From positions 1 through 64,000 of the IMG/VR virus record IMGVR_UViG_3300027867_000003: a stretch of DNA of 64,000 nucleotides, one strand, 5' to 3'. Made by a program: the position numbers and the translations under genes. Every line of letters begins with the position of its first letter. Position 1 is the stretch's first letter. This document shows positions 15,360-57,106 of the stretch, one piece after another. A model generated the notes under the pieces. It saw only the letters and a program-made list of their open reading frames with translations. It was not told the DNA's origin and did no database searches. Source of the stretch: a virus.

Positions 15360-15665
15360 TTAACCGATGATCGGAACTACGGGCAGAACGGAGGGGTTAG
15401 ACCAGGTCCGCTCTGCCCCAAGTCGGATCTGGTTGTTGATTGCGGCCCGGAATTCGACGGCCAATGAATGGGGAATTTTTGGGCCAACGGGAATTGTGCC
15501 CCGAGTTATGTCATCAACCCAAACCTGATAGAGAGGTTCGGGGATGATATTGGGTCGAAGCATTTCCCGTTGTTCATCTCGGGAGAGCTTGTTAAAAGGA
15601 CGATAATCGGGAAATCCAACCGGAGTCCCCCCACTAGCCCGAACTGAGGGTTTCAGTTTAGTCAT
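15360..15665 (-). CDS. hypothetical protein
   Basis: 101-aa ORF co-oriented in the head operon. Confidence 0.55.
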   Translation of the reverse strand: MTKLKPSVRASGGTPVGFPDYRPFNKLSRDEQREMLRPNIIPEPLYQVWVDDITRGTIPVGPKIPHSLAVEFRAAINNQIRLGAERTWSNPSVLPVVPIIG

Positions 15666-15880
15666 TCAAATAAGTCCCCTATGTCTATTGCCAAGTCGGT
15701 TTTAATCTTTCGGGGACCTCTTGGGGATGATGTGTCGAGAATCGGATCACCCCCTAAATCCCTCCAGCTTCGCCCTTTTCTTGTGTCGGTTATAGTTGGT
15801 TGGCTGATATTATATCGCTTAGCTAGAACGCTGGTTGTAAACAACGAGCCAACTATACCATGAACCGCTGAGCTTGGCAA
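15662..15880 (-). pseudogene. remnant of HNH-type endonuclease C-terminus (HTH) with AIDIGDLF tail
   Basis: LAKRYNISQPTITDTRKGRSW resembles the C-terminal HTH of phage HNH endonucleases; no catalytic domain; AT-rich. Confidence 0.5.
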
Positions 15881-16036
15881 GCCTAATTCTCCATCTAATT
15901 CGGGATAGTATTTAGAACATCATTATCGATAGCAAATAGGGAATACGTCATTGTTTAGGTCGGAGGGTGTCGTATGACTAATCTGGTCGCCAGATACATC
16001 ATACAACACCAATCCGTCCAAACAAGCAAAGTCGGA

Positions 16037-17242
16037 TCAATTCGTGAGTCGAACGCCGAGTTCGGGATAGAAGCTGGACGTTCCGTACAAAATGTCGATG
16101 CGAGCTGGAAAAACGTCGTTCTGAATGTCGAACGCTCTAATAATTCGCATCGAGACGTTCTTATAATTCTCTCTCGCAGCGAAATCAACCCCTTCGGGAA
16201 TTTCCATCGGCACGGTCACGAGCCCGAAGGTGTCGCGAACGAAGGCCAGATTCTGGGCCACGGTGGCATTCTGTGTCCCAAGGACCGTGATAGCAGCGAG
16301 GTTGGCCGGAAGCGCATCGACCGTGGCATAGGGATTCGTGTTCGGCGCGGTGCCGACCACAGAGATCGACGGCGAGATCGGAATCACAGCATTTCCACTT
16401 CCGTCGGAATTAACCGCCGCCGTGACGACAAAGTTCTGGAGATTCCCCGTCGAAACTCGCGATTGCGGATTGATCGCATGGACACCGGCGATCGTGAAGA
16501 CATTGCCGGGGAGCAGAAGATTCGTGACGCTGGCGGTCCAACCATTGGTCACGAGTGACGAGCCGGTTTGGTTGGCGCCATTGACCACGCCGGCCGAAGT
16601 GCCCCAAGCACCGAGGGTCTCGGACTGGACGTTCTGGTCTCCATAAATCTCGAAGTTCGCAATGTTGGCGAGGAAGCCCTTGAGGGCAGGCTCGGCAACG
16701 GAGCGAACATAGAGGGAGATCAGGGCGGCATCAACGGACCAATAAGCGGCCGGATTGAGAACGAGATAGCGTCCGTCCTGCGGCACTGCTCCTTCGTCCA
16801 TCCGTTGGCCAACCGCCGCGACACTAGAATAGGAATTGGGCAAAGTCCCTGTGGTGCCCACTTTATTCCAAACGGCACTCCAATTGCCCATCACGTCGTA
16901 GTCGAGGCGGTTGGCGAGGGCCGCAGCGCCCGGCTTAAGATAGCGTTCGCTGAATTCCTCGATCGTCAGCGTCAGTTCGGTCGAACTGAATTCGAAATCC
17001 ACATGGCGCTGATTGGAAATGGAGATTGAAGTCGACGGCTCAGTGATGTTCTGAATCTGGAGACCTGGTCCAGTCGAAACCGTGAACCGATTGGGTTTGC
17101 GAACTGTCAGGGATGAGCCGATTTTGACGAACTGGTTTTCGAACTGTCGGTTAACCTTGCCGGTCATGACAAGGTTATTTTCGAGGAACACCAGTGTCTC
17201 TTTGCTGATGATGCTCGGGGTCAGAGTATTGTTGGAGGGCAT
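16037..17242 (-). CDS. major capsid protein, P22 coat (gp5) family
   Basis: NTLTPSIISKE, KIGSSLTVRKP, FSERYLKP, RIDILYG..YPEL motifs; GAGGA RBS. Confidence 0.92.
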   Translation of the reverse strand: MPSNNTLTPSIISKETLVFLENNLVMTGKVNRQFENQFVKIGSSLTVRKPNRFTVSTGPGLQIQNITEPSTSISISNQRHVDFEFSSTELTLTIEEFSERYLKPGAAALANRLDYDVMGNWSAVWNKVGTTGTLPNSYSSVAAVGQRMDEGAVPQDGRYLVLNPAAYWSVDAALISLYVRSVAEPALKGFLANIANFEIYGDQNVQSETLGAWGTSAGVVNGANQTGSSLVTNGWTASVTNLLLPGNVFTIAGVHAINPQSRVSTGNLQNFVVTAAVNSDGSGNAVIPISPSISVVGTAPNTNPYATVDALPANLAAITVLGTQNATVAQNLAFVRDTFGLVTVPMEIPEGVDFAARENYKNVSMRIIRAFDIQNDVFPARIDILYGTSSFYPELGVRLTN

Positions 17243-17441
17243 AGGTTAATTCCTCGCGAAGCGAATTGACAAAAGACCAGAGTTTCCAACTCCAGCCAGT
17301 TCTTGGGTTGAGTAACGCCTCCGCGAAGAGGACCGAAGCCCTCGGCCTAGGTTATACCGCCTAGTGTCGGTTGAGTACGACGCCCTCCGGCGAGAAAACG
17401 GACCCGAGATCAGAGTTCCCGGTGAACTCAGTGTTCAGATC

Positions 17442-18578: not shown

Positions 18579-18584
18579 CGGTAT

Positions 18585-20029: not shown

Positions 20030-20030
20030 C

Positions 20031-23417: not shown

Positions 23418-23431
23418 AGAGGTTATCCGCC

Positions 23432-32558: not shown

Positions 32559-32777
32559 TCACCCACCTAGGGGCGGTTGTCTTGTTCGCGGCTTGCGAAC
32601 CAAAGTCATTTCCCAAAAACGGACCGGCTCTTGCGACGGAAACTTGTGTAGTTCAATGAAGGCATATAGGCGATTATCGTTATAATACTCAATCGCCTGT
32701 TTTCGGTTGTCGAAAAACTCTGCCATTCCATTATAGCAAAGTTCTACCATATAACGTTTTGTCTTTGTGGTGGTCAT
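32559..32777 (-). CDS. hypothetical protein
   Basis: AT-rich 72-aa ORF. Confidence 0.4.
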   Translation of the reverse strand: MTTTKTKRYMVELCYNGMAEFFDNRKQAIEYYNDNRLYAFIELHKFPSQEPVRFWEMTLVRKPRTRQPPLGG

Positions 32778-32803
32778 CTTTCCGGCCCTTTCGCGTGAAA
32801 GAT

Positions 32804-32827
32804 GGGAGGGAACAACTGTTCCCTCCC
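32804..32827 (-). terminator. stem-loop / intrinsic terminator
   Basis: GGGAGGGAACA-ac-TGTTCCCTCCC perfect inverted repeat downstream of ORF 32842-33429. Confidence 0.65.
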
Positions 32828-32841
32828 TCGTTGCGCCCGTC

Positions 32842-33429
32842 TTAAAGGGCGATGTCGATGGCGGCGTCGGTCTTAGGCGCGACCTTCGCGCGCTTGCGAT
32901 CCTTCGCCGGGACGATTGCCCGACCGGACTCCTGCGCCGATTTCACGGCATTGGCGAAAATCCGGCTGCGGTGCTTCTCGGCCGTCTGCTCGACCACCAA
33001 CTTGCGCGCGTCCTTCTCGACCTTCGTGGCGTCCTTGCCGAGTTCGCCGAGCTTGCCGTCGACCGCATTAGCGACCGCGACGAAGTAGGCTGCCTCGTGC
33101 GCGTCGTTGTTCTTCGCGCTCGGCCCGTTGCCCGCGTACAGCTTGTCGATTGCCGATTGCAGGCTCTCGCCGTCGTAGTTCTGTCCGACGCGGTTGCGGG
33201 CGTATTCAGCCCACGACTGGAACAGATAGGGGCGGGCGGCCGGCTCGACGTTGGCGAAACCGGCGAGCGCCCGAAGGACGGCCAACATGCCGTTGACTTC
33301 GATCTCGACCTGATTGTCGTGGATGCCGAACTTGCGCGCCGCAGCGGCGGCCAGCCAGGCCTCATGATCAGGATTGGCCTCGCCAGCCGGCTCTACGGGG
33401 CGCACGTGGCTCTGTGTGCTCTGTGCCAT
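32842..33429 (-). CDS. hypothetical protein with AIDIAL tail
   Basis: Very GC-rich third positions; ends RKRAKVAPKTDAAIDIAL. Confidence 0.75.
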   Translation of the reverse strand: MAQSTQSHVRPVEPAGEANPDHEAWLAAAAARKFGIHDNQVEIEVNGMLAVLRALAGFANVEPAARPYLFQSWAEYARNRVGQNYDGESLQSAIDKLYAGNGPSAKNNDAHEAAYFVAVANAVDGKLGELGKDATKVEKDARKLVVEQTAEKHRSRIFANAVKSAQESGRAIVPAKDRKRAKVAPKTDAAIDIAL

Positions 33430-33818
33430 GATGTTTTGCCTTCTCTCTCATTGGATGGCTCGGGCGGGCTTGCCCGAGCTTCTGTGCCAGCGGTAGCCGC
33501 ACTGGCGCGGGTGGCGCGGCGGCCGAACCGCCCGTATCGAAACCACGATTGGGAGTATAGCCTCGCGCGCGCGTGAAGGGAAGAAAATCGCAGCCGGGAG
33601 CCACGGTGTTTTTGCATAGCTTCGGCGGCGTTGGGGGCGCGCAGCGCCGCCGAATGCATGGCTCGGGAAGCTCGATTGTCGAACCCCCGCGTCGTCCAGA
33701 AGATCGGGCTTTCTCGACTTGCGAACCCCTCGCATCGCCGGGGGCGAAGCTGCCTTATAACATAGGCAAAAACAAAAAATCGACGGGGGATTTTCTCCAA
33801 CATAGGGATCATTGCCTC

Positions 33819-35624: not shown

Positions 35625-35692
35625 CCTCGACCAACCGGAGACGCTGAAATGCCCGCTCCTCATAAGATCACACTGCTACAGGAGACCCATTG

Positions 35693-36217
35693 ATGACCCC
35701 CGGCCTCCCGACCGTAGTCCTTTGCCTCCGCCCCGACGGGACAATCCAAGCCGAGGCGCCCGGAGCCAACGGAACCAGGGTCAAGTTGGACGACTCCCTG
35801 CTGCGGAATCTTCCCCCCCAGTATCAAGACTCCCTAGTTGAACAGCAGAACCGTCTGCGGCGCAAAGCCCAAGACGAAGCCCTTGAACGTAATCGCTGGG
35901 TCTTCAACTATGTCGCCGAGACTCACAACCACGGCTCCGAGTCGGGCGAAGCCTTTGCCCGTCGAACCGTCGGCCGCACTGTCCGAACCCCTCAGGGCAT
36001 TCGAAATGTCCTCGCCCGCTCTGGCTTTTCGAAGGCCGAGATCGACCTTATGGAATCTCGGGGCGAGCTGACGGGGAGCGCCTTTTTCTCGTCGATCGAA
36101 ACCGAGGACCGCATTGCCCGCATGAGGGAGACGGGAGAATCGACAGCCAAGGTCAAGCGGGCCAAATCCGGCCCCGTCGACCTGTCTCAGGCCGTCGACA
36201 TCACAGACTTGTTCTAG
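35693..36217 (+). CDS. hypothetical protein with QAVDITDLF tail
   Basis: AGGAG RBS; C-terminal motif. Confidence 0.75.
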   Translation: MTPGLPTVVLCLRPDGTIQAEAPGANGTRVKLDDSLLRNLPPQYQDSLVEQQNRLRRKAQDEALERNRWVFNYVAETHNHGSESGEAFARRTVGRTVRTPQGIRNVLARSGFSKAEIDLMESRGELTGSAFFSSIETEDRIARMRETGESTAKVKRAKSGPVDLSQAVDITDLF

Positions 36218-36227
36218 GGAGAAGGAC

Positions 36228-36512: not shown

Positions 36513-36580
36513 CCGAAATCGGCGTGAAGCGGGCCCATCGACATCACAGACCTTGTTCTAGCAGAAGGACAGACCCTCAA

Positions 36581-37248: not shown

Positions 37249-37493
37249 TGTCCATCTTCACCCGACGCCACTACATCTGGCTCGCCGAAGTCGGTCGACA
37301 GATGATCGCCGCCGACCTCGATCGAAGCTCTAAGATCGACAAATGTATCCAAGTCCTCGCAACGGCTCTCGAAGCCGAATCTCCCGCCTTCAACCACGAC
37401 AGATTCATGAAGGCCATTTACGACCCCTCGGTCGACCTTTCAACCTCTAACGAAATGGAAACGAGCGATGTCCGTTCCACAAAGAGCCGCTGA
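37248..37493 (+). CDS. small early protein (paralog of 40844-41104)
   Basis: FTRRHY...ESPAFNHDRFMKA; GGAGG RBS. Confidence 0.7.
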   Translation: MSIFTRRHYIWLAEVGRQMIAADLDRSSKIDKCIQVLATALEAESPAFNHDRFMKAIYDPSVDLSTSNEMETSDVRSTKSR

Positions 37494-41104: not shown

Positions 41105-41134
41105 TCCCCGTTTCTCATCTTGGGAGTCAGAGCA

Positions 41135-42013
41135 ATGGTCTCAAAGAACGCAAAAGCCCCCGAGGCAACTGGAATTTCCCTCACCAAAGGCGATCTTCTG
41201 AATCGCCCCGGAACATTTCTAATGATCCCCACAGGAGAACTTAAAGTCGATTCCGAATACCAACGCCCCTTAACAGGCAGTCGAGTCGATCGACTTGCCA
41301 ACGACTGGAATTGGATCGCGTGTGGCGTCTTAACTGTCGCTCTTCGCGGTCCCGGGAGTGGCGATTACTATCTAATCGACGGTCAACACCGTTGGGCCGC
41401 CGCTCGGAGAGCCGAAATTTCCGAACTCCCTTGCATGGTCTTTGAAACATCCGAACATACCGACGAAGCCCGAGGCTTTCTTGACGCGAACACGAATCGA
41501 AAATCGATGGCCGTTTTAGACAAATACCGCGCCATGCTAGTCATCGAAGACCCAGTTGCCTTGAAAGTTAAGGACCTACTAACTCAAGCCAACCGCGATC
41601 CGGTTCTCAGCTATAGCGGTCGAAGCAACCAACCCTCAACTATGGGTCGCGCTTTCAACGCCCTTGATTATCTAATGTCAGCAGTTAGAACCGACAGCGA
41701 GGCCATAGAACGCATTTGGCCCCTAATGATCGAAGTCTCCGACGGCCGACTCCTCACCAAACGCCTCATTCAAGGCTTCTTCTATATTGAACGCTATTTA
41801 TCAAACGCCTCAATTACCGAACGTCTCTGGCGTCGACGAATCCTTCAAATCGGATATGATTTGCTTCACAAATCCATCGACGAAACCTGTTCTTTCGAGG
41901 GCCGCTCGGGATCTGCAATTTGTGCCCAAGGAATTCTTAGAGCACTCAATAAAGGTCTCAGGAACAAACTCAGAATCAATGTCACGCAAGAGCCCGAGAA
42001 CCAAGATGAGTGA
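41135..42013 (+). CDS. ParB/Srx-like (DUF6551-type) protein
   Basis: LKVDSEYQR, LIDGQHR, EARGF..N motifs. Confidence 0.75.
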   Translation: MVSKNAKAPEATGISLTKGDLLNRPGTFLMIPTGELKVDSEYQRPLTGSRVDRLANDWNWIACGVLTVALRGPGSGDYYLIDGQHRWAAARRAEISELPCMVFETSEHTDEARGFLDANTNRKSMAVLDKYRAMLVIEDPVALKVKDLLTQANRDPVLSYSGRSNQPSTMGRAFNALDYLMSAVRTDSEAIERIWPLMIEVSDGRLLTKRLIQGFFYIERYLSNASITERLWRRRILQIGYDLLHKSIDETCSFEGRSGSAICAQGILRALNKGLRNKLRINVTQEPENQDE

Positions 42014-42038
42014 GAAAAATCCAAGCGGAGGACCTCAA

Positions 42039-42461
42039 ATGACGATCAATGAGACAAAATCTCTCCTTCAATCCCATCATATCGTCGGAAGCCGCTATCG
42101 ACCTCCCGCGAGAGCCCTTCTTGACGCCATTGCTGTCGGAACCCCCCTGACGCTTCGCGCAGAACCAACCAATGCTGTCGACCCAAACGCCATCGCGGTT
42201 TATCTCAAGACCGCAGATATTGGCGACCGAGCCTGGGTGAAGCTCGACGGAACCCTCAGATGGTATGACACAGACATCATGACTGTGATGTCTGAATCTG
42301 AGTATCACGTCGGCTATATCGCCGCTGCCATTGCCGCGGTTCTCAGGTCTCAGGGCTTTCCTGACACGGATGTCCCCGGGAAATTCGCGATCTCTCCTCG
42401 TGGCACACCGAAGGTCGAATTCACCTTCATCTCTCAGAAACAGGAGCCTCAAGATGCCTAA
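42039..42461 (+). CDS. HIRAN-domain protein
   Basis: IVGSRYR, LRAEPTNAVDPNAIAV, VGYI. Confidence 0.75.
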   Translation: MTINETKSLLQSHHIVGSRYRPPARALLDAIAVGTPLTLRAEPTNAVDPNAIAVYLKTADIGDRAWVKLDGTLRWYDTDIMTVMSESEYHVGYIAAAIAAVLRSQGFPDTDVPGKFAISPRGTPKVEFTFISQKQEPQDA

Positions 42462-42978: not shown

Positions 42979-43389
42979 CCGCGCAGCGGGAAGTGAGAAC
43001 CCATGAAAGGAAACCCCTCAATGAATCCCGAACTCAAGTCCCTCTGGATCGCAGCCCTCAGAAGACAGTCGTACATTTGGCCCAGAAACCAAAAGCCCCC
43101 AGATCAGGAGCCCCATCAAATGTCCGAAATCCGAGCCCGTGATGTCGTTGCCGACGCCCTCAGCCTCGGCCTCGCTTTCATAACTGCGATCCTCGTTGTC
43201 GCAGTCATCTGGCTCTCCCTCATCCTCATCGGAGTCGACTAATATGAAGGCCAATTCTCTGAAATATGTCCTCCATCCGTGGAAATCCTGGGAAGAGGCC
43301 CAAAAGAAGCGACAAAAAAGAGCCCAAGAAACCTTCAACATCCTTCATAAATGGCTGACCGAAGCGCTCGCTGGCATCGGGGAGGCTCA

Positions 43390-43773
43390 GTGAGAGACCC
43401 GGGTCGAACACGTCCGAGCGATGTCGCAGCGTATCGGAGTCAGAAGACCATGACCGACGAACCCCCATTCGAGCCCCTCGTGCTCAATGAGTCGATTATC
43501 CGAGACTCAGTGGCCTCTGGCAATGTCGATCGACTGATCTCGCTCTTTCAATTCCTAAAAGACGGCCGCGACCGCGCCGAATTTCAGGTCAAATGTCTCG
43601 AACACCAGATCGCGTTGCTCGAAAAAGCCACCAAAGCGATCACGGAACCCTTGAGACCTGCAACTCGGTCAAACGAAAAAGATGTTTTCATCACCCCTAA
43701 TCGTCCCACAGGTCCAAAGACCAAACCAGTAACCGAGGATCCTCTGTCGGCCGCGATCGACATAGACCTCTAA
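43390..43773 (+). CDS. hypothetical protein with AAIDIDL tail
   Basis: Coiled coil followed by the C-terminal motif; start could be 43390 or 43450. Confidence 0.65.
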   Translation: MRDPGRTRPSDVAAYRSQKTMTDEPPFEPLVLNESIIRDSVASGNVDRLISLFQFLKDGRDRAEFQVKCLEHQIALLEKATKAITEPLRPATRSNEKDVFITPNRPTGPKTKPVTEDPLSAAIDIDL

Positions 43774-44497: not shown

Positions 44498-44611
44498 GGC
44501 GATCGGTTGTATGCACTCTCCGCTCGCCGGATCGTATGCCCCCTCCGCCGCCCTTGCCATCGCCCCTCCCCTCCATTATCATCCCAACCAACCACCAAAG
44601 GCCACACCCCA

Positions 44612-45043
44612 ATGCCCGACCAACCAACCACCCCAACGAAAGAACAAGAACTCCCCAACGAGAAATCCGAAATCGAGACTGAGATCCTTCTCTCCGACAA
44701 AAAGACCTTCTCTGCCGACGAACTAGAAGCCGGCTCCATCCGCTATGGCAATCGCGGCATATGGCTACTTCCCCTTCGATCGGGCAATCTGGCCCTCTTC
44801 GACAGGGGATTTAATCTAATCTCGATAATTGACGATCTTCCCACAGCGGCCGAGATCAGTCTCCTGGCTCAAGAATCCGAGGCTCGTTGTCGAGCCGACA
44901 TGAGGGCCTACGAATTAAGTCATTTCTTGGGCGAGCCGTCGGACAGACAACTCGTTCGAGACATTCGCCGGGCCGAACGAACCCCAGTTCCCCGATCACC
45001 AAAACAGTCCCCGCTATCTCAGGCCATCGACATCGACCTCTAA
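44612..45043 (+). CDS. hypothetical protein with QAIDIDL tail
   Basis: Start MPDQPT inferred; C-terminal motif. Confidence 0.7.
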   Translation: MPDQPTTPTKEQELPNEKSEIETEILLSDKKTFSADELEAGSIRYGNRGIWLLPLRSGNLALFDRGFNLISIIDDLPTAAEISLLAQESEARCRADMRAYELSHFLGEPSDRQLVRDIRRAERTPVPRSPKQSPLSQAIDIDL

Positions 45044-45061: not shown

Positions 45062-45340
45062 ATGCCCCAAATTCAATCAATCAGCCTCGCAGACCTCATC
45101 GACCACGAGTCCCGCCGAATCGCAATCGACCTAATTCAACAGAAACTCGAATCCGAGGGACTCCCTCTCCCAAAGGACAGCAGCCTCGCAGTCCACGTTG
45201 ACCAAATTCTCCTTCTCAGGCCCGAGATCAGAACTCAGGCCGAGAAAGTCGTTCTCGCCCGCCAAGACGCCTTTACAGAGAGCCTCCAAGCTATCGGAAT
45301 CGAAGTCCAGATCGTCGAACCCATCGACATCGACCTCTGA
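45062..45340 (+). CDS. hypothetical protein with PIDIDL tail
   Basis: GAGGA RBS; C-terminal motif. Confidence 0.7.
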   Translation: MPQIQSISLADLIDHESRRIAIDLIQQKLESEGLPLPKDSSLAVHVDQILLLRPEIRTQAEKVVLARQDAFTESLQAIGIEVQIVEPIDIDL

Positions 45341-45354
45341 GGAACAAACCAAAC

Positions 45355-45624
45355 ATGGTGAAACGAGCGCTACGTCGACACCAAGCACAGTCCCATATGC
45401 GGCGCCGATTAAAAGAAGACCGTAATCAACATTACGCCAATCTGACCTGCCTCTGTTGGACTGATCCCCGAACGATGGCGCGGTTCAAAGAACAGCCGTG
45501 CCGTTGCAGTTGTTACGGCTGCGGTAATCCACGGTATCAGGTAAAGGGGGAGGAACGCTTTACGATGCAAGAACGCCGACACCTATTGAGCGATGACAGA
45601 GCCTTAGAGGCCAATCTAAAATGA
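45355..45624 (+). CDS. small Cys-rich basic protein
   Basis: PCRCSCYGCGNPR...TMQERR. Confidence 0.65.
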   Translation: MVKRALRRHQAQSHMRRRLKEDRNQHYANLTCLCWTDPRTMARFKEQPCRCSCYGCGNPRYQVKGEERFTMQERRHLLSDDRALEANLK

Positions 45625-45887
45625 CCCAATTATCTAACATAGCCCGCTCAATTCTCCGACAAGCTGCTTTATCCGAATTCGGCCTAGAGATCGGGATTAC
45701 GGCAACGTCAGACAAGATCATCACACCGGCCCTACGGGCGAAGCAAATTCTATATCGCTTTAAGTCCGAAGATGCTGATTTCTCGAATCTCCGAATTGAT
45801 CTCAGTCCCACCGATCCCGACAAATATCTCTGGATCATCAACACAGGACCTCGAATTCCGACCACAGCTCTGGAGATCGACCTCTGA
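45621..45887 (+). CDS. hypothetical protein with ALEIDL tail
   Basis: Coupled ORF; C-terminal motif variant. Confidence 0.7.
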   Translation: MTQLSNIARSILRQAALSEFGLEIGITATSDKIITPALRAKQILYRFKSEDADFSNLRIDLSPTDPDKYLWIINTGPRIPTTALEIDL

Positions 45888-46122: not shown

Positions 46123-46335
46123 ATGCCCCGCTACATCACCCACGCCCGAGATACCCGAGAACTTCTGGCCGAGTTCCAGAGCGACATAACCCGGCGACTC
46201 GATACCCTCGACGGAATCCTAAAAACCATGAAACCCAACGCGGCAGAATCGAGCCGAATAAGTCGCGCCCGGCGCGAATTGCTCGACCTACAAGACTACT
46301 GGCGGAACATCGAAATCGGGGGAGATCGCGAATGA
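46123..46335 (+). CDS. hypothetical protein
   Basis: Purine-rich RBS; coupled to the next gene. Confidence 0.6.
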   Translation: MPRYITHARDTRELLAEFQSDITRRLDTLDGILKTMKPNAAESSRISRARRELLDLQDYWRNIEIGGDRE

Positions 46336-46604
46336 CCGACAGCGAAGCCCCAACCTCTCCTCTCACAGAGGCGACCCCCGATTCCGTCGACGAACTCCTG
46401 GATCTGATGAATCGTTCGATGGTTGCCGGAATGCCCGAAGCCATTACGGACGACAAATTGGTCAAACTAATCGCAGCCTATCGGCGCCAAGCTGAGAATT
46501 GGCTCATTCAGGAAGCCGAAAAGCGTGCCGCCGGCCCCCGAAAGCGCCAACCAAAGACCTTCGACACCAGCCAAGCCATCGACATCGGCGACCTCTTCCA
46601 ATGA
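46332..46604 (+). CDS. hypothetical protein with QAIDIGDLFQ tail
   Basis: GGAG RBS; C-terminal motif. Confidence 0.7.
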   Translation: MTDSEAPTSPLTEATPDSVDELLDLMNRSMVAGMPEAITDDKLVKLIAAYRRQAENWLIQEAEKRAAGPRKRQPKTFDTSQAIDIGDLFQ

Positions 46605-47722
46605 CTGAGATCATAGACAACAATGAACCCGAACCACTAAGCCTTGGAAAGCAAATGGTAGAATCTATGACAATTCATTCTGAAATCGAGATAGATTCAA
46701 TGACCGATGGCACAGGTCTGACGAGCCTCGAAGCCACAGTTCTAGAGGCCCAGCGACAGTCCTCTGAGGCCCTGTCTTCCGAAGGCCGACAATCCTTCTC
46801 GACCAAAATCCCCAACCTTCAGATTGCCTGGGATTCGACGAGCCTCAACGATCTAAAAAAGTGCCCCCGCTATTATCAATATTCCATGGTCCTAGGTTAC
46901 GGAAGTCCATTCGCTAATGCTCATCTGACCTTCGGTGGCCTTTTCGCCAAATCACTAGAAACCTATAATCGCCTGATGGCAAAAACCGACTCCGATCACG
47001 AAAAAGCCCTAATTGAAGTCATTCGCTTTCTAGTTTCCGCCACTTGGGACTCCGAGATAAATCGTCCTTGGGTATCCGACGAGCCAACAAAGTCCCGCGA
47101 TACCCTTCTCCGCACCGTTATTTGGTATCTCGATTTCTTCAAAACCGATTCACTGAAAACCCTGACCTTTCCTGATGGAACCCCCGCAGTTGAGGTTCCG
47201 TTTAGACTCCATTTAGGCGATATTGATCTCTTTGCCCCAAGTGGCGAGGAATTCCTGCTCTGCGGTTATCTCGACAAAATCGTCATTTGGAACGACGGAA
47301 TCTACATAGTCGACCAGAAGACAACCAAATCCCCCCTCGATGATACTTATTTCAAACAATATAATCCACATAATCAGATGACCCTATATTCCATTGCTGG
47401 AAAAACAGTTCTAGAACACGAAATCGACGGAGTTATCATCGACGCGGCACAGATTCTCGTCGAAGGGACCCGATTTAGACGGCGCCCAATTCCAAGGTCT
47501 ACAGAACAGCTTGAAGAATGGCTCGTCGATCTGAAATATTATCTCAAAGAAGCCATAACTTATGCCATTGACAATCACTGGCCAATGCGAGAATCGTCTT
47601 GTGGCTTCGGTCGGAATCAATGCACCTTTCGCCCCGTCTGCTCCGCAGATCCGTCGGCCCGACAGGAAATGCTCGACAGCTTCTATGTCAGGAGAATCTG
47701 GAACCCCCTAGAGACCCGCTAA
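46601..47722 (+). CDS. PD-(D/E)XK (RecB/Cas4-like) exonuclease
   Basis: DSTSL..KKCPRYY, GYLDK..IVDQKTT, QMTLY, C..C.F.PVC. Confidence 0.85.
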   Translation: MTEIIDNNEPEPLSLGKQMVESMTIHSEIEIDSMTDGTGLTSLEATVLEAQRQSSEALSSEGRQSFSTKIPNLQIAWDSTSLNDLKKCPRYYQYSMVLGYGSPFANAHLTFGGLFAKSLETYNRLMAKTDSDHEKALIEVIRFLVSATWDSEINRPWVSDEPTKSRDTLLRTVIWYLDFFKTDSLKTLTFPDGTPAVEVPFRLHLGDIDLFAPSGEEFLLCGYLDKIVIWNDGIYIVDQKTTKSPLDDTYFKQYNPHNQMTLYSIAGKTVLEHEIDGVIIDAAQILVEGTRFRRRPIPRSTEQLEEWLVDLKYYLKEAITYAIDNHWPMRESSCGFGRNQCTFRPVCSADPSARQEMLDSFYVRRIWNPLETR

Positions 47723-48012: not shown

Positions 48013-48015
48013 CCG

Positions 48016-48462
48016 ATGCCCGTCTTCGCCCTCATCGACCCAAAGGCCCGATCAATCGACCTAGAGGATTTCCCTAGCTACGATCTAGCTCTCGACAAAG
48101 TTGGGCTAAAAGCTGGTTCCGTCGACTTCGGCACCGTGGCTCAGTGGAAAGACGGTCGAAATCTCTCAATCATCGTCTATGAATGGAGCCTCATGGACAG
48201 CGACCCTGAAGCCTATTTCGCCTGCAACGGACGTCTCTACAATGGCCCCGCCGTGATGTATATGTCCGACGCCGAGGGTGAGACAATCGACTTCTCGCCG
48301 GCCTTGGCCGAACACTTCAAGGCCGACTGTTCTCACTTCCTCTGGCTCAGTTCGGTCGAAGCCGCCGAAAAGGCCATCATGGAGAACAAAGTCATTCGAC
48401 CCCAGACGGCCATCAACGGAGTTCCAACGTGGCAATGGAATAAGCCGAAGGAGTCTGTCTGA
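48016..48462 (+). CDS. hypothetical protein
   Basis: LIDPKARSI start; RBS. Confidence 0.65.
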   Translation: MPVFALIDPKARSIDLEDFPSYDLALDKVGLKAGSVDFGTVAQWKDGRNLSIIVYEWSLMDSDPEAYFACNGRLYNGPAVMYMSDAEGETIDFSPALAEHFKADCSHFLWLSSVEAAEKAIMENKVIRPQTAINGVPTWQWNKPKESV

Positions 48463-48463
48463 G

Positions 48464-49450
48464 ATGCCCAGCCTCCTTGATCCAATCTCCGAATCCGCCA
48501 AGATCCTCCTAATCGGAGATCAGTCGGCCGGAAAGACCGGGGCAAAAGCCAGCCTCATCGCAATGGGCTATAAGCTCCTGATGATCGACACCGACAAAGG
48601 CTTCAAAATCCTCAGAGCCCTCTTGACCGATTCTCGATATCCATATAAAGCCTATATGGAAAAACATGGCATCCGACCTGAGGAAAATATCAGCTACATT
48701 CCGATTGACGTCCCGATGGACTTCAAATCCGAGAACATCAAAGGGACTCAGTGGAACATTCTAAGTCCTATGTCGTCGTCTGCCTGGTCAACCGTCATCA
48801 ATCTCCTTCGTGAGTGGAAAGACGGTCAGAAGTCCTGGGGCTCTATCAACGACTGGGACAGCGACACAATTCTCGACTTCGACACCATGTCAACATTGGC
48901 TGAGATTGCCAAATATTGGGTCCAAGACATGAACGGCCATCTTGGAGCCCTCGTCGACGATCACGGCCGAGACACCGGCGGGGCGCAAGAAATGATAATG
49001 CGCCTGATGACCAAAGTCACATCATCATCGGTGCGATGTAATGTCATCATCACAGCACATATAAAGCGAGTCGACATGTCAGCCGATGTCCCCCAGTCCC
49101 CAGAACAGAGGCTCAGAGAAAAAAAGGCCATCGACCCAAAGGGCTTTCCCGCCGTTATCGGACAGGCCGTCAGTCCATATATCGGAAAGAAATTCAACGA
49201 CCAATTCATCGTCAAACAAGACGGCGACGGCAACCGAGGAACCCGAAGAATCTACACCGTGCCAACTGACAACGTTGGGGCCAAGAACTCCGTCTATCTT
49301 GAACCATCTTATGACCTTACCAGTGGCCTCGCCGAAATATTCTGCGCCCTTCAATACAAAGACCCCCCAACGGATCTCATTAACGCCATGAAACCGAAGT
49401 CAGAAGGCCCACCCCCAGGTCCCATCGCCAGTGGCTTTGGAAAACGATAA
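48464..49450 (+). CDS. AAA_24 / Sak4-like P-loop ATPase
   Basis: KILLIGDQSAGKT, IDTDKG, DFDTMS, NVIITAH; between exonuclease and SSB-like gene. Confidence 0.8.
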   Translation: MPSLLDPISESAKILLIGDQSAGKTGAKASLIAMGYKLLMIDTDKGFKILRALLTDSRYPYKAYMEKHGIRPEENISYIPIDVPMDFKSENIKGTQWNILSPMSSSAWSTVINLLREWKDGQKSWGSINDWDSDTILDFDTMSTLAEIAKYWVQDMNGHLGALVDDHGRDTGGAQEMIMRLMTKVTSSSVRCNVIITAHIKRVDMSADVPQSPEQRLREKKAIDPKGFPAVIGQAVSPYIGKKFNDQFIVKQDGDGNRGTRRIYTVPTDNVGAKNSVYLEPSYDLTSGLAEIFCALQYKDPPTDLINAMKPKSEGPPPGPIASGFGKR

Positions 49451-49467
49451 CCCAAGGACAATTCTCA

Positions 49468-49830: not shown

Positions 49831-50322
49831 ATGGCCGAACCAATGGACCTTCGCGATCTGCTTGACGCCCCAGGGACATCGTTTCCTGACCGCCCGAGTC
49901 TCCCCGGCTCAAAGACCTTCTACGGGAAGCTCCTTTCCGTCGAAGCAACTCACAGCCAGGTGAAGGGAACCCCTGCGTTCCGCTTCAACGTCCGTCTCAC
50001 GGACCCTGGTTCCGATGTTCCCAAGCCCGCCCTCGACGCAATCACGGGCGCCGGTTTCAACCTCAGCGACTACCAGGTCTACTATGACTTCTGGCTGACC
50101 CCCGGCTCCATGTCCATGCTGTGGCGCTTTCTGGAAGGTGGTGGTTTCGACCGGAACAAGGGCCTCCGGGAGCAGATGAAGCTCGACGACAGTTATAACC
50201 CCACCGCCGATACCAACGACCTGTTCCGGGGCATGGACATCATCTGCCGAACCCAACAGGCGAACGACCAGGGGCGGGTCTTCAGCAACCTCGACATGAT
50301 TGCCTTCAGGAAAGCCGCCTAA
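49831..50322 (+). CDS. SSB-like / OB-fold protein
   Basis: Follows the ATPase; LPG..FYG, FWLT, optimised codon usage. Confidence 0.55.
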   Translation: MAEPMDLRDLLDAPGTSFPDRPSLPGSKTFYGKLLSVEATHSQVKGTPAFRFNVRLTDPGSDVPKPALDAITGAGFNLSDYQVYYDFWLTPGSMSMLWRFLEGGGFDRNKGLREQMKLDDSYNPTADTNDLFRGMDIICRTQQANDQGRVFSNLDMIAFRKAA

Positions 50323-50784: not shown

Positions 50785-50787
50785 ACC

Positions 50788-52212
50788 ATGTCTCGTGATC
50801 TCGATCCCCGGAAAATCATAGTCCGAAATCGCCAACGGAAGGACCTCGGAAATCTGACATCCCTAGAGAACTCCATAAAGACCCGAGGCCAGATTCATCC
50901 AATCGTCGTTCGAACCGAGCCCGATGATTCGATTGTCCTGATGGTCGGTGGCCGAAGGCTCCAGGCTTGCATCAATCTCGGCATCCCCGTCAAGGCCGAC
51001 TTCTGGGACGACCTCGACGACACAACGGCCAAAGCCGTTGAACTAGAGGAAAACATAAAGCGAAGCGATCTGTCGTGGCGCGATCACGCCACAGCGGTCG
51101 GCGAACTCCATCAATTATACAAAGACACCCGCCCGGATTGGACTGTCCAGAAAACCGCAAGCGAAATTAGCATGGCCCCCAGCCAGATTCATCTAATTCT
51201 CACCGTATTCAAGAACCTCGCTTCGCCCCTCTTGAACAATTCCCAGAGTCTCGACCAATCTTATTCAATCCTTCAGAACACAGCTGAACGCAAAACGGCC
51301 CAAATCGTCGCCGACATAATTTCAGCGAGCAAAGAGATCTTCGACTCAGCATCGAATTCACAGGAGAAAAACAATGAAAGAGACTCTATTGGCCCTGACG
51401 GCAGGGATGATAGTGGGGTTAATAATGTCACCAATGGTCAAGGACTTATCAATTCAGAGAAGGATGATGCTGATAGCCATTCCAGCAATCTTAGCAGGAG
51501 TCTTAGTTCAACGTCTATATCACCCAAAATAATTCTGAATACCAATTTCCTCACCTGGGTCGCCAAATACAGCGGGCCTCAGTTCAACCTCATTCACTGC
51601 GACTTCCCATATAGCATCCAATATGACAGCTATGCAAAATCCATCTCTAGCACAACCGAAGATTATGATTTCTCCGGCTTCTTCGACCTCCTCGACCCGC
51701 TCGTCGAAAACATCAATAAGATCGCCTCCTATTCATCGCACATCATGTTCTGGTTTTCTATGAAATTCTACGAACAAACGAAACAAAAACTCGAATCCAG
51801 TGGTCTCTATGTCCACGACCATCCCCTAATCTGGCACAAGACTGACAACGCCGGCATCATTCCGGGTAGAGACAATGCCTTTCCCCGCCGGGTCTACGAG
51901 ACAGCATTTCTATGTTCCCGTGGTCGAAGAACCCTCGTCAAATCTCTCTCAAATACCTATGGATGTCCAACATCCGATAAACCGATTCATCCCTCTCAGA
52001 AGCCCGAGCCGATGCTAAGGCACTTTTTCTCAATGCTCATAGACGAAACAACCGATTTCTTCGACCCCACCTGCGGCAGCGGCACTGCGCTCAGGGCCGC
52101 CGACGCCGTCGGAGCCCGCTCGGTCCTCGGTGTTGAAATCGACCCTGCTTACGCCGCCTCAGCCGAAAGCGCCTTCCAGACATCCTGGCTACTCCGAAAA
52201 GCAATAAGATGA
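50788..52212 (+). CDS. ParB-N domain fused to N4/N6 DNA methyltransferase
   Basis: RQRK, GQIHPI, GGRRL, ELEENIKR; then DFPY, HPSQKP, DPTCGSGT (beta-class order). Confidence 0.85.
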   Translation: MSRDLDPRKIIVRNRQRKDLGNLTSLENSIKTRGQIHPIVVRTEPDDSIVLMVGGRRLQACINLGIPVKADFWDDLDDTTAKAVELEENIKRSDLSWRDHATAVGELHQLYKDTRPDWTVQKTASEISMAPSQIHLILTVFKNLASPLLNNSQSLDQSYSILQNTAERKTAQIVADIISASKEIFDSASNSQEKNNERDSIGPDGRDDSGVNNVTNGQGLINSEKDDADSHSSNLSRSLSSTSISPKIILNTNFLTWVAKYSGPQFNLIHCDFPYSIQYDSYAKSISSTTEDYDFSGFFDLLDPLVENINKIASYSSHIMFWFSMKFYEQTKQKLESSGLYVHDHPLIWHKTDNAGIIPGRDNAFPRRVYETAFLCSRGRRTLVKSLSNTYGCPTSDKPIHPSQKPEPMLRHFFSMLIDETTDFFDPTCGSGTALRAADAVGARSVLGVEIDPAYAASAESAFQTSWLLRKAIR

Positions 52213-52949: not shown

Positions 52950-53158
52950 GAAAGATTTCCCAAATGACCCTCTTTCTAGTTGCCTATTTCATTCTCAACA
53001 TAACCATCGCGTTCAAATTCCTCATCGACAGCCCGGGTCTAAAACAGAGTGTCGCCTTCATCTGTGCCTATCTTATAGCCCTTGTCGGAATTCCCGTCCT
53101 AATTGCAATCTTCATCAAAGTCAGTTTCGATCGCCTCTATAACAGAAAACCCCTTTGA
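52940..53158 (+). CDS. small two-TM membrane protein
   Basis: Two hydrophobic stretches. Confidence 0.5.
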   Translation: MPLRKISQMTLFLVAYFILNITIAFKFLIDSPGLKQSVAFICAYLIALVGIPVLIAIFIKVSFDRLYNRKPL

Positions 53159-53174
53159 AAGGCAACTTAGAGAT

Positions 53175-54518
53175 ATGAAGGTCGTTATAGTCGGCGAAGC
53201 CTGGGGGAGGCATGAAGAACAGATGTCCCATGCCCTCGTAGGACCCTCGGGTCGCGAATTGACCCTCGAACTCGGTATCTCCGGCCTCGCCCCCTTCATG
53301 CAAATTCAATGTCATGAATGCAAAGAGATGGTCGACTTCACCGACGGCACCTGCGATAATTGCAAAAGTCGCATCTGGCCCAATGAATTCCATCTTCTCG
53401 ACTATTGGAAGAAACTGCGAACCGAACATGGTATTGCCGTCACCAACGTCTTCAACCGAAGGCCGTTTGCCCTTTATAATTTCCCCGACATCGGCTGGTC
53501 AACTTGCAAGATCATCGAAGATCGCGGAAAGTTTAGCAAAATTAAGCGCCTCTCCGACGACACCGAGCACACCGTCATCACAAAATCTGTCATCCAGAAT
53601 GACCTCGGTGGCTTCTTTTCTCCCGAGAGACAGACCCCGATGCCCCCGTGGAAAGCATCAAAGATAGTCAGCGGAACACACCTAAAGCGCGAGTTCTTCC
53701 ATCACGTCGAGAGCCTATGGACGGAAATCCGCGACCTCGACCCGACATTGATCCTCTGTCTCGGCAACGCCGCCTGCTGGGCCATCCTAGGTCAGACAAA
53801 AATCACCGCCCTCCGCGGCACAGTTTCTATGAGTGCGAAGGACCTGACAGGATTTGAGAAGAAATGCCTCGCAACTTTTCATCCTGCCGCCGTCCTTCGC
53901 GCCCCTCCCATGCGAGCGAGCGTCATTCCCGACCTGACGAAGGCCAAACGCGAAGCCGAGTTCCCCGAAATACGACGCCCCGAACGATGGCTGACAATCC
54001 CGAGTCCCAACGAGGCCGGAATAAAAGAAGGCTATGAATGGTTAAAACGACCGACTCAATCGTATTCCTGCGACATCGAAACAATCAAACGTCAAATATC
54101 TATCATCGGTTTTGGAAGATCCCCCTCAGATGCCCTGGTTATCCCCTTTAGGGATGCAAACGTCGATAACCAAGGTCATATCGTCGATGTCGGAAAGATC
54201 GCCACTGATCTCGGATTCCCTTCAACCAATATAAATTATTGGCCCACTCCGGAACTAGAATTCGAAGCCTGGAAACTCGCTATAGCAGCCCTCCAATCAG
54301 ACAAAGAGAAGATATTCCAAAACGGTATATATGATTTATCTTATATGGTCGGAATGGGCATATTTCCAAAGAACATCGCCCACGATACGATGTTGTGGCA
54401 TCATAGTCGATTCATTGAACTACCTAAGAGCTTAGGATTTTTAGGCTCTATATACTGTAATGAAATTTCGTGGAAACAGATGTCCCGACACAGCAACTCT
54501 CTAAAAAGAGACGAATAA
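53175..54518 (+). CDS. uracil-DNA-glycosylase-like domain fused to partial 3'-5' exonuclease
   Basis: VGEAWG..E, VGPSG, TNVF, LGN.A, TFHPAA; DIET (ExoI), QNGIYD (ExoII), HDTM. Confidence 0.85.
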   Translation: MKVVIVGEAWGRHEEQMSHALVGPSGRELTLELGISGLAPFMQIQCHECKEMVDFTDGTCDNCKSRIWPNEFHLLDYWKKLRTEHGIAVTNVFNRRPFALYNFPDIGWSTCKIIEDRGKFSKIKRLSDDTEHTVITKSVIQNDLGGFFSPERQTPMPPWKASKIVSGTHLKREFFHHVESLWTEIRDLDPTLILCLGNAACWAILGQTKITALRGTVSMSAKDLTGFEKKCLATFHPAAVLRAPPMRASVIPDLTKAKREAEFPEIRRPERWLTIPSPNEAGIKEGYEWLKRPTQSYSCDIETIKRQISIIGFGRSPSDALVIPFRDANVDNQGHIVDVGKIATDLGFPSTNINYWPTPELEFEAWKLAIAALQSDKEKIFQNGIYDLSYMVGMGIFPKNIAHDTMLWHHSRFIELPKSLGFLGSIYCNEISWKQMSRHSNSLKRDE

Positions 54519-54520
54519 CC

Positions 54521-55999
54521 ATGCCAACAATAGCGTTCCACGAGATCGAAATTAATAAAGCCAATCAGGCCATATATTGCGGCGGGGACAATTTTCTCAC
54601 CAAAGAGATAGACCAAGTCAGGCAGAATTTGCGAGACAATGACACTCTCATATATGATCTTGAGCGAGCCCTGCAAGGCCCCGTCCTAGAACTAATGCTC
54701 CGAGGCTTCCGCGTCGACATAGACGAACGCGATAAGGCCATAGAGCTAGTCACACAGAAGCGAGCCTCAGTCGAGAAAATCCTCTCCGCCATCATAACAG
54801 CGATCCAGGGTTCCTATGATCCCAAGTTCCCCCGATCAGACAAACAACTGCGAACTCTGTTCTACGATCATATGAGGCTAATTCCAATTGAAAAGCACAT
54901 AAACGGTGAGACCAAGAGACCAATGGACAGAGAGACATTGGAGAAACTCGAACTCCAAGATAAGTGGGCCGCCCCCATCATCAATGCAATTCTCCAGTTT
55001 CGCGATCATTCGAAGTCCCTCGAAGTCCTCGAAAAGGAAATCGACTCCGATTTCCGCTGGCGATGCTCATATAATATCGGAGGGACAAATACGGGTCGTT
55101 TTAGTAGTTCCAAATCCCCCTTTGGAACAGCCAGTAATTTTCAAAATATTCATGAGGACCTTAGACGGGTCTTCATCCCCGATTCGGGATATAAGCTCTA
55201 TGGCATCGATAAGGCCCAGAGCGAATCTCACGACGTCGCCTGGTTCTGCGGTACAATTTTAGGCGACTGGACCTATCTCGACGCCTGCCAATCAGGCGAC
55301 TTACATACCTTCGTAACCCGCATGTGCTATCCTGATTGGGCCTGGACCGGAGACCTTAGAAAGGACCGTGCTTTAGCTGAACGTCGTTTTTATCGTCTCT
55401 TCACCTATCGTGACGTCTCAAAGCGCGTCGGCCATGCTACGAACTACCTTGGAACTCCCAAAGAGATTTCTCGACAAACTCGGCTACCCCAGAATATTGC
55501 TGAGGAATTCCAAGAACGCTATTTCACCGCCTTCCCGTGCATCCCGCAGATGCACCAATGGATTTCTCAAGAACTTCAACGCCACAGATTCTTAGTCAAT
55601 TCCTTCGGTCGCAGGAGAGACTTCTTCGACCGTCCAGATAGCCGCGAGACACTGAAATCGGCTGTCGCCTATATGTTTCAATCAGCGACCGCAGACGCCT
55701 TGAATTTGGGTATGTACCGTCTTTGGAAGAACATGAGAAGCAAAGTCCAACTCCTCTCCCAGCTTCACGATGCCGTTTACTTCCAAGCCCCCATCACGGA
55801 CGAAGAATCCGAAAGAACCCTAATCCGTGAATGCGTCAATTGGGTTCAGATCACCCAGAGAGATCCGAAATCAGGTCGCTCTATGACCATCCCAGGAGAG
55901 CCGGTCGGCGGCTTCAATTGGGCCCACCGATTTAGAATCCGAGAAGACGGCACGAAGGAAGAATGGAACAAACATGGCCTAGACTCAATTAGGATCTAA
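54521..55999 (+). CDS. family A DNA polymerase
   Basis: TGRFSSS, NFQNI, DKAQSE (motif A), R..SKRVGHATNY (motif B), QLHDA (motif C). Confidence 0.92.
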   Translation: MPTIAFHEIEINKANQAIYCGGDNFLTKEIDQVRQNLRDNDTLIYDLERALQGPVLELMLRGFRVDIDERDKAIELVTQKRASVEKILSAIITAIQGSYDPKFPRSDKQLRTLFYDHMRLIPIEKHINGETKRPMDRETLEKLELQDKWAAPIINAILQFRDHSKSLEVLEKEIDSDFRWRCSYNIGGTNTGRFSSSKSPFGTASNFQNIHEDLRRVFIPDSGYKLYGIDKAQSESHDVAWFCGTILGDWTYLDACQSGDLHTFVTRMCYPDWAWTGDLRKDRALAERRFYRLFTYRDVSKRVGHATNYLGTPKEISRQTRLPQNIAEEFQERYFTAFPCIPQMHQWISQELQRHRFLVNSFGRRRDFFDRPDSRETLKSAVAYMFQSATADALNLGMYRLWKNMRSKVQLLSQLHDAVYFQAPITDEESERTLIRECVNWVQITQRDPKSGRSMTIPGEPVGGFNWAHRFRIREDGTKEEWNKHGLDSIRI

Positions 56000-56003
56000 A
56001 GAA

Positions 56004-56390
56004 ATGGAAATCGTAGAACCCGGTCACTGGTTTAAGCTGAACAACTATTCCGGGATTTCAGAGAGCACAACTTTGTCGAAATCTCAATTAGTTTTCATGC
56101 ATAGAGTTGGTGACAATTACCCAGGAAACCACGGCTATCCGTATGATGGGACAAATTGTCAGGAAGTCCTAAGAGCCTTGATTCACCGTTGCATTTACTT
56201 AAATGGTCAGATTCCTTGCCGAGAAACAGAGAACATAATCGAGAATCTTCGTTATAGTCTAATCTTGTTCGAAGAAAGAGCAGCTAGGGTTCACGGACTA
56301 AAACTCCCCCCAAATCTTCCAAAAGATATAGAAAATACACCAACTTGCCGCCAGTGCGGTCATATAGTATGTAATCACAAGAAATTCTGA
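56004..56390 (+). CDS. Tad1-like helical protein (possible nucleotide sponge)
   Basis: GTNCQEVLRALIHR..L...PCRE.....L..SL..FEER pattern. Confidence 0.45.
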   Translation: MEIVEPGHWFKLNNYSGISESTTLSKSQLVFMHRVGDNYPGNHGYPYDGTNCQEVLRALIHRCIYLNGQIPCRETENIIENLRYSLILFEERAARVHGLKLPPNLPKDIENTPTCRQCGHIVCNHKKF

Positions 56391-56417
56391 ATCTGAGGAT
56401 CGAGAAAATTTGCCCAG

Positions 56418-56597
56418 ATGCCTTCTGACTGGATCACCGACTTTGTGGCATCCACAGAGACCATGCGAAGCCCGGATTCATTTCGCCTTTGGGGCGGCAT
56501 CGCCACAATTGCCGCCGTTCTCGAACGCCGCGTATGGACGGAGACCGACGTCGACAAACTGAAGAGGTTAGGAAAATGTCTAGAAAAAGGTGTATAA
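56418..56597 (+). pseudogene. orphaned 5' fragment of the helicase-like gene
   Basis: MPSDWITDFVASTETMRSPDSFRLWGGIATIAAVLERRVWTETDVDKL matches the N-terminus of 57119-58327. Confidence 0.85.
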
Positions 56598-57106
56598 TCT
56601 GCGGTAATCCCGTTCATGGGAATGGGCTGTGCTCGAAACACTATCAGCGCCAACGCTTTCATGGAGACCCAAATATAATCTTAACTGTTCAAAATAAGGG
56701 GCTATTATGTAGCATTGAAGCTTGCAAAAAATCAGCTTTCACGAAAGGATTCTGCCGACAACACTACGACTCTATCACGGTATACGGCCGGGTCGACTTA
56801 ATAAGACGAGAAAAAGGAACAGGATCTATACATAGCGGCTACGTTTTCATAACTGTAAATGGAGAACAGGTCAGAGAGCACATATATTTAGCTGAAAAAG
56901 CATTAGGAAGAAAATTACCAGAAGGGGCGGTTGTCCATCACATGAATGAAGACGGAACCGACAATCATACTCCATTCAATTTAGTAATCTGTCCAGATAG
57001 AGCCTATCATAACCTACTTCATACCAGAATGCGGCAACTAAGTGGAGTCCCAGCTGTACGACGCAGAAAATCTATTACTGAACATGCTATAGACATTGAT
57101 CTATAG
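56576..57106 (+). CDS. HNH homing endonuclease with HAIDIDL tail
   Basis: C..CG..GLCSKHY repeats; REHI..AEKALGR.L...VVHHMNE..DN..NL..C...H. Confidence 0.85.
   Translation: MSRKRCIICGNPVHGNGLCSKHYQRQRFHGDPNIILTVQNKGLLCSIEACKKSAFTKGFCRQHYDSITVYGRVDLIRREKGTGSIHSGYVFITVNGEQVREHIYLAEKALGRKLPEGAVVHHMNEDGTDNHTPFNLVICPDRAYHNLLHTRMRQLSGVPAVRRRKSITEHAIDIDL

Follow-up and report, generated by a model that had tools for sequence, protein, structure and literature searches.

A shared C-terminal peptide in a soil phage genome

The window examined here covers the first 64,000 nucleotides of an IMG/VR virus record (IMGVR_UViG_3300027867_000003) that is complete at 84,797 bp and represents an uncultured phage from a soil metagenome. 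Among sequencing runs, one DNA run of a soil metagenome, probably the sample of origin, was listed for it, and no RNA run. An initial annotation had proposed that nine unrelated open reading frames (ORFs) in this window share a C-terminal tail, a basic patch followed by AIDI(G)DL(F), that serves as a short linear docking motif. Virion genes lie on the minus strand up to ~34 kb, and from there to 64 kb the plus strand carries the early and replication genes; tRNA genes are absent. A near-identity search of deposited phage records recovered no close relative of this phage, and its nearest TerL proteins, from Pseudanabaena and Microcystis phages, show 38–48% identity. Using simple gene calls of our own, with 126 called genes entering the tail statistics, we located all nine tails in the places originally given, an internal tenth copy within CobS, and a possible further weak carrier:

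46332–46604, plus strand: protein X, the founding carrier, 90 amino acids (aa), ending QAIDIGDLFQ, with tip codons at 46575–46601
43351–43773, plus strand: ORFan carrier, 140 aa, ending KTKPVTEDPLSAAIDIDL (AAIDIDL)
44507–45043, plus strand: ORFan carrier, ending RSPKQSPLSQAIDIDL (QAIDIDL)
45062–45340, plus strand: ORFan carrier, 92 aa, ending IVEPIDIDL, without the basic patch
45621–45887, plus strand: weak variant carrier with the weakest tail, 88 aa, ending TTALEIDL
35690–36217, plus strand: ORFan carrier, 175 aa, ending KRAKSGPVDLSQAVDITDLF (QAVDITDLF)
56489–57106, plus strand: AT-rich HNH endonuclease (44% GC) matching HNH families, with the appended tail RRRKSITEHAIDIDL (HAIDIDL)
15662–15880, minus strand: HNH-like small ORF in the virion operon, 72 aa, 46% GC, ending RKIKTDLAIDIGDLFE (LAIDIGDLFE)
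32842–33429, minus strand: ORFan carrier, 195 aa, ending RKRAKVAPKTDAAIDIAL (AAIDIAL), followed by a GC-rich hairpin
37747–37770, plus strand: internal copy RRRTSAAIDIGDAF (AAIDIGDAF) at residues 94–101 of CobS (ORF 37468–39168)
63343–63513, plus strand: possible further weak carrier, 56 aa, ending NDDLFDGDER

With the tails removed, no relation of the carriers to one another was detectable. HNH nucleases account for two carriers, and the remaining ones have no Pfam or PHROG match. The coding scores of the carriers are better than those of overlapping ORFs, and the carrier at 32842–33429 likewise scores above the opposite-strand ORF 32767–33576. Directly 3' of its stop codon lies a perfect 10-bp GC-rich hairpin (GGGAGGGAAC ... 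GTTCCCTCCC, 32795–32841, minus strand), which looks like a terminator closing the minus-strand block. The carrier at 44507–45043 is 143 aa long in a public collection call, so its start is likely near 44612, and a homologue search with this protein returned only itself. Protein X, which lies directly upstream of an exonuclease gene, has two helices that lead through a disordered, basic linker to its tip, QAIDIGDLFQ.

A strict regular expression, [AP][IV]DI.?[DA][LA], matched ten times in the six-frame translation of the genome, and eight of these matches lie no more than two residues from a stop, while shuffled controls (n = 200) gave a mean of 0.12 matches in total and 0.005 at C-termini. Counting without any pattern agreed with this: in the last ten residues of the called genes the commonest 4-mers were AIDI (6), DIDL (4) and IDID (4), compared with no 4-mer occurring more than three times in 500 draws of internal windows. 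The enrichment over shuffled sequence is therefore upheld. The basic patch is present as proposed in seven of the nine carriers but missing in two, and its enrichment is modest, with a mean of 3.7 Lys or Arg residues at positions −25 to −7 in carriers compared with 2.5 in other genes (P = 0.025). Searching the literature for these tip strings brought up nothing relevant.

We then considered whether selection acts on the peptide or on the DNA. Between any two of the six AIDI copies there are ~2 synonymous changes, and codon choice tracks the GC of the gene in which each copy lies, with ATA or ATT in the 44–46% GC HNH genes (GCT ATA GAC ATT GAT CTA in the HNH gene at 56489–57106) and ATC elsewhere. 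As these synonymous differences follow each gene's GC, they point to selection on the peptide, in agreement with the initial annotation. The alternative is that the shared ends are chiefly a DNA-level feature, in which tail, stop codon and ribosome-binding site form a recombination joint for cassettes, the tail DNA is homogenised by the phage's own annealing system, and the peptide has little function. One 18-mer, present in five copies with three or fewer mismatches in genes of normal GC, would fit such a joint, as would a direct repeat:

36192–36228 and 36535–36571, plus strand: 37-nt direct repeat covering tail codons, stop codon and ribosome-binding site, 76% identical, with one extra C

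This repeat pair brackets ORF 36228–36512, which indicates that tail-coding DNA is also involved in cassette recombination. The second copy is a relic that is not translated as a tail, and the repeat looks like either a cassette-insertion scar or a carrier whose tail was lost behind two in-frame TGA codons. However, the two copies in AT-rich HNH genes are 5–6 of 18 bases away from the 18-mer, with every change synonymous; all DNA matches to the tail other than this repeat are in frame at gene ends; nothing besides ordinary ribosome-binding sites is conserved past the stop codon; and X orthologues keep the tip at only 20–35% identity. Taken from the sequences, this evidence favours the peptide over the DNA as the selected level, and we regard a chiefly DNA-level explanation as very improbable.

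Protein X, its module and the dialects of the tail

Related phages were sought by several routes. A back-translated scan for AIDIDL plus stop gave 28 loci, among which the sole relative was a 14.7-kb viral contig (L039) that has a Cas4-like exonuclease and a Sak4-like ATPase in common with the window at 30–45% identity. The corresponding scan for AIDIGDLF returned internal, unrelated matches only, and scanning viral contigs with CobS and PolA patterns yielded distant relatives at best. A two-exonuclease alignment search recovered 80 viral loci and one cultured phage, Caulobacter phage Kuura; most of these relatives are known only as loci of up to 20 kb, with Kuura as a complete genome. The core shared by the group consists of the exonuclease, an AAA_24/Sak4-like ATPase, a ~150-aa protein, a ParB-methyltransferase fusion, a split family-A polymerase and a primase. 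Three conserved neighbours of X in the window are candidate readers, that is, partners on which the tails might dock:

46622–47722, plus strand: Cas4-like exonuclease, adjoining X
48278–49450, plus strand: Sak4-like AAA_24 ATPase
49831–50322, plus strand: SSB-like protein with an OB fold, 163 aa, without a family match

The OB fold of the SSB-like protein is confidently predicted (predicted local distance difference test, pLDDT, 94), with PrgE and bacterial SSBs as the nearest solved structures, and the model has neither a disordered C-terminal linker nor an acidic tip.

Orthologues of X occupy the same position, upstream of the exonuclease, in 67 related loci, and a profile search with X gathered 2,556 representative clusters, all of 64–127 residues, which makes the family widespread among uncultured phages. 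No member has a convincing Pfam or PHROG match, the profile found nothing significant among PDB sequences, a search of the ESM Atlas with X gave no usable match, the clusters are annotated only as "hypothetical protein", and no longer or fused forms were found, although this last negative is weak evidence. An AlphaFold2 (AF2) model of X has helices at residues 19–32 and 40–66, followed by a non-helical stretch at residues 67–90 with pLDDT 57–64. A basic linker and an acidic-hydrophobic tip end the protein in all 67 loci and in all of 150 diverse representatives, with the family consensus PHI-S-L-[DE]-D-L-G-L (LSLDDLGL) and the variants ...DLDL, ...DIEI, ...DLF and ...DLGF; tandem copies occur occasionally, as do one to three trailing residues. 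The N-terminus of X also holds a conserved segment, S-L-[DE]-E-L-F-x-R-D-P-L, which resembles a D-L-F-type motif.

Within a genome, the tip of X recurs on other, unrelated ORFs, in a form that is particular to the lineage:

window: AIDI(G)DL(F)
L092: three LSLEDLGL-type ends
L120: LSLDDLGL, LSLEDLGL
L089: DEEDAGF, DDEDAGF
L057 group: VDELLSGLD, FDELLEGLE
L040: VDVESLI, VDVDSL
Caulobacter phage Kuura: LNIDDLFSE, LSIDDLLSTL

We evaluated this by scoring each genome's own X tip, along with the tips of 28 other genomes, on the ends of the other ORFs of the same genome. In seven of 29 non-redundant genomes (binomial P = 4.6e-5) the genome's own tip came first, ahead of all others, and its mean rank was 9.9 compared with 15 expected. 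In Caulobacter phage Kuura (OQ067476) the tip LNIDDLFSE belongs to gp036, the X orthologue, and LSIDDLLSTL to gp051, while the module proteins are gp035 (exonuclease), gp032 (Sak4-like), gp031 (SSB-like), gp029/gp026 (polymerase) and gp025 (primase). In L068 a family-A polymerase (Pfam DNA_pol_A) ends ...SLLDLPIE next to an X ending ...DLLKDLPI. Likewise, L120 (CAZWFX010000021.1), a 37-kb contig with the same module, carries three ...L[DE]DLGL tails. This contig was binned in a Saccharibacteria metagenome-assembled genome (MAG); either the bin points to a host of that sub-lineage, or a phage contig was binned wrongly. A scan of genome contigs gave one MAG contig with a Saccharibacteria label, which is too little to name a host.

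The earlier observation that even AT-rich HNH genes carry the tail was correct for both of them. In nine related loci, homologues of the HNH endonuclease at 56489–57106 have nothing beyond the nuclease domain and so no tail, and the L039 homologue of 45621–45887 also has none. Judging from these ends, tails are gained and lost. In orthologues from related phages, where the initial annotation had proposed to look for the motif, X keeps a tail across the 2,556 clusters, and the tails co-vary within genomes. The tail is thus selected as a peptide, portable, conserved in orthologues and co-varying within genomes. Together, the synonymous codons, the appending to HNH nucleases, the retention in X orthologues and the co-variation support the view that it behaves as a short linear docking motif, portable between proteins.

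A second class of ending is present in the group: most polymerases end in a basic patch followed by G-L-x-R-[VI]-[LF] (L045, L060, L062, L063, L066, L069, L070), and in L081, L103, L108 and L110 X and other ORFs of one clade end ...RR[VIF], with the usual tip internal, so that this module may use a further docking peptide. The family-A DNA polymerase itself is encoded group-wide as separate exonuclease and polymerase genes (53103–54518 and 54470–55999 in the window; 6880–9817 in L040; 13584–16929 in L057), sometimes with small ORFs or an HNH gene between the halves. The ParB-methyltransferase fusion, at 50788–52212 in the window, is kept across the related group; the window also encodes a ParB-like protein (41120–42013) and a HIRAN-domain protein (41787–42461). 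Upstream of the module, many relatives have a UvrD-like helicase ending L-A-N-L-E-D-F (4366–5922 in L063; also L039, L057 and L069), which has no counterpart in the window phage.

Candidate readers of the tail

Being C-terminal, disordered and hydrophobic at its end, and present on early proteins that may be toxic, such as HNH nucleases, the peptide could also be a degradation tag that delivers its carriers at a set time to a protease of the host (ClpXP, ClpAP, Lon or FtsH). C-terminal degrons are established in bacteria (ssrA, MuA). However, the tips are acidic and end I-D-L, D-L-F-E or D-L-F-Q, unlike LAA-type or RRKKAI-type degrons, and they are conserved on a core module protein, in 2,556 clusters, as well as on a DNA polymerase; a phage is unlikely to produce such proteins only to have them degraded. 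The scanned window ORFs also include no protease, HslV-like or other. We therefore consider a degron quite improbable.

CobS and CobT, a MoxR-type AAA+ protein with a von Willebrand factor A (vWA) partner, had been put forward as the hub, and in such a machine the conserved Asp of the tails would be read at the vWA metal site. Both are encoded among the carriers, and vWA MIDAS sites bind acidic ligand residues. Yet neither gene is found in any related locus or in the complete Kuura genome, all of which have the tail system with X and further carriers, and this means that CobS/CobT is not the family-wide reader. Furthermore, four unrelated cobS-bearing viral loci have no shared ends, and CobS itself bears the tag. 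Its N-terminal extension of ~280 residues comprises a small domain, the tag and a long helical or charged linker ahead of the AAA+ domain, with CobS homology beginning near residue 285 and phage homologues matching only from about residue 270–290, and by its layout looks like a small carrier fused to an AAA+ gene. A CobS/CobT reader is scarcely credible, and the hub part of the earlier proposal is set aside.

A single reader for all tails probably does exist. In the mechanism that we propose, the tail would be a portable docking peptide, made of a disordered basic linker and then an alternating hydrophobic/acidic tip, PHI-x-PHI-x-(x)-[DE]-L-PHI. It would have originated in the two-helix protein X (46332–46604) of the replication-recombination module and been copied, lineage by lineage, onto early-region ORFans, homing HNH nucleases, the CobS AAA+ ATPase and the DNA polymerase of one relative, so that a single reader holds all carriers at DNA undergoing replication or recombination. 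Our first choice for this reader is the host beta sliding clamp, with the tip placed in the clamp's peptide pocket like the PHI-x-[L/M]-(x)-[F/L] part of the clamp-binding motif. By analogy with known clamp partners we find the complete proposal plausible, though short of probable. Other host partners are unlikely readers.

Several observations are consistent with the clamp. Replicative polymerases hold their clamps by an extreme C-terminal peptide in T4 and E. coli, and a polymerase with the tag at its extreme C-terminus, as in L068, would be typical of clamp systems. In the canonical clamp-binding motifs, Q-PHI-x-[L/M]-[F/L] and Q-PHI-x-[L/M]-x-[F/L], a terminal LGL can replace LF and vice versa, and LF alone binds the clamp; delta uses AMSLF, without the motif Gln and with a Q preceding; and phage display on the clamp selected LQLELDF (reviewed in PMC11139829). 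Phage Mu MuC/Mor bind the E. coli clamp by a terminal Q-x-D-L-F or a bare DLF (PMC12867686). In comparison, AIDIDL fits PHI-x-PHI-x-L, the X family alternates between ...DLGL and ...DLF, and all nine tails have an aliphatic residue (I, V or L) at motif position 2 with D or E at position 3. From position 4 onwards the picture is mixed: in the short form, I-D-L, the fourth position is Ile and the sixth Leu, the long form ends D-L-F but in another register, and the D-L-G-L of the family consensus fits. The tip of X lies in a terminus that is disordered by the low-confidence tail of its AF2 model. The complete genome has no beta or gp45 clamp gene (no match to PF09116, PF00712 or PF02768), so the phage has no clamp of its own, and trailing residues, an internal copy and tandem copies of the tip are tolerated.

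Other features of the tails weigh against a clamp. Motif position 1 is A, P or L and never Gln, only three of the nine tails have a Q one residue upstream, as in delta QAMSLF, and position 4 is Ile where Leu or Met is expected. In the consensus L-S-L-D-D-L-G-L an Asp stands where the clamp motif wants an aliphatic residue. The half occupying subsite I is the only part of the motif to fit, and the first half misfits the family consensus. Most polymerase tails of the family (RKR..GL.R[VI][LF]) are not clamp-like. The dialects also differ sharply between related phages (AIDIDL, VDVESLI, ANEDIL, DEEDAGF), which is unexpected given that few bacterial sites are as well conserved as the clamp pocket, and the exact local dialect is kept even in AT-rich genes, which suggests a narrow, fast-evolving reader that would more easily be a phage protein. 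A predicted complex of X with two copies of E. coli DnaN scored 0.01, with a mark of 0.32, a result that speaks neither for nor against the clamp.

The absent Gln, the mismatch in the first half of the motif and the sharp dialects favour instead a reader that is a co-evolving phage protein of the conserved module, for which the Sak4-like AAA_24 ATPase is the likeliest candidate, others being the Cas4-like exonuclease, the primase, the ParB-methyltransferase and the helical domain of X itself. The tip of X would then play the role of an SSB C-terminal tip, since the SSB of this group has none, its predicted structure being a fully folded OB fold. In phage HK620, binding and stimulation by Sak4 require the last six residues of its cognate SSB (PMC5928155), a precedent that may apply here, where the SSB is tail-less and X has the tip. 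Lineage-specific dialects common to unrelated proteins, and the synteny of X with exonuclease, Sak4 and SSB in 67 loci, point in the same direction, and the tips DDLGL, DDLGF and DEEDAGF resemble D-D-[IL]-P-F in layout. However, there is no clear reason for ~10 proteins, including CobS and homing nucleases, to dock on a recombinase; the tails here may lie internally or be followed by one to three residues, while SSB tips need a free terminal Phe; and the stretch before the tip is basic and not acidic. The exonuclease tree forces only ~3 dialect switches, too few independent ones for a test of co-evolution with any candidate. A phage reader is accordingly possible, if doubtful. At the same tentative level, this PolA/Sak4 phage group might run a replication-recombination factory around an undescribed phage reader that co-evolves with the portable tag, in which X replaces the missing SSB tip and incoming genes, homing endonucleases included, gain access through the local dialect.

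If the host clamp is the reader, as we tentatively prefer, ~10 phage proteins would be loaded on the replication hub of the host, which would offer a route to host takeover and to coupling with replication. If it is a phage protein, the tail would represent a new way of organising viral replisomes, and the tag could be reused for cargo recruitment. As Caulobacter phage Kuura is cultured and has the tail system, the question can be taken to the bench.

Comparison with known docking systems

Shared docking tails are established for T4 gp43, gp33 and gp55 on gp45, for T7 gp2.5 and gp4 on the polymerase, for bacterial SSB and for the beta clamp. Like the window tails, the gp45-binding C-termini of T4 and RB69 and the PIP box place one C-terminal hydrophobic/acidic peptide on unrelated phage proteins, including a polymerase. 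The gp45 tails dock on one ring-shaped hub, and the core of the window tail has the same h-x-x-a-a spacing (I-G-D-L-F). However, a gene for a gp45-like or PCNA-like protein is missing from the window phage, and the sequences are unlike. The SSB tips (DDDIPF), those of T7 gp2.5 and gp4 and the HK620 SSB tip are also acidic-hydrophobic tips on a disordered linker that act as a handle for replication or recombination, and a protein of the Sak4 family, which reads the HK620 tip, is encoded near X here too (PMC5928155). In contrast to these, the window tip is not on an SSB, its carriers are not OB folds, it follows a basic linker, lacks Pro-Phe and may have one to three trailing residues.

The beta-clamp motifs of bacterial polymerases, Hda, MutS/L and phage Mu MuC/Mor are alike in being short peptides in a disordered terminus on many unrelated DNA-handling proteins (PMC11139829, PMC12867686). 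They also share the tip PHI-x-PHI-x-L or D-L-F and the alternation of LGL and LF, and phage proteins exploit the host clamp likewise. Unlike them, the window tails have no Gln at position 1 and have Ile in place of Leu or Met, and the dialects are lineage-specific. New are the phage group, the unannotated X family and the explicit test for dialects, as well as the finding that homing nucleases, CobS and a polymerase have captured the tag. In T4, T7 and bacteria, many enzymes reach a common hub through shared docking peptides, and the tails described here would extend the same logic to a large, unstudied group of phages.

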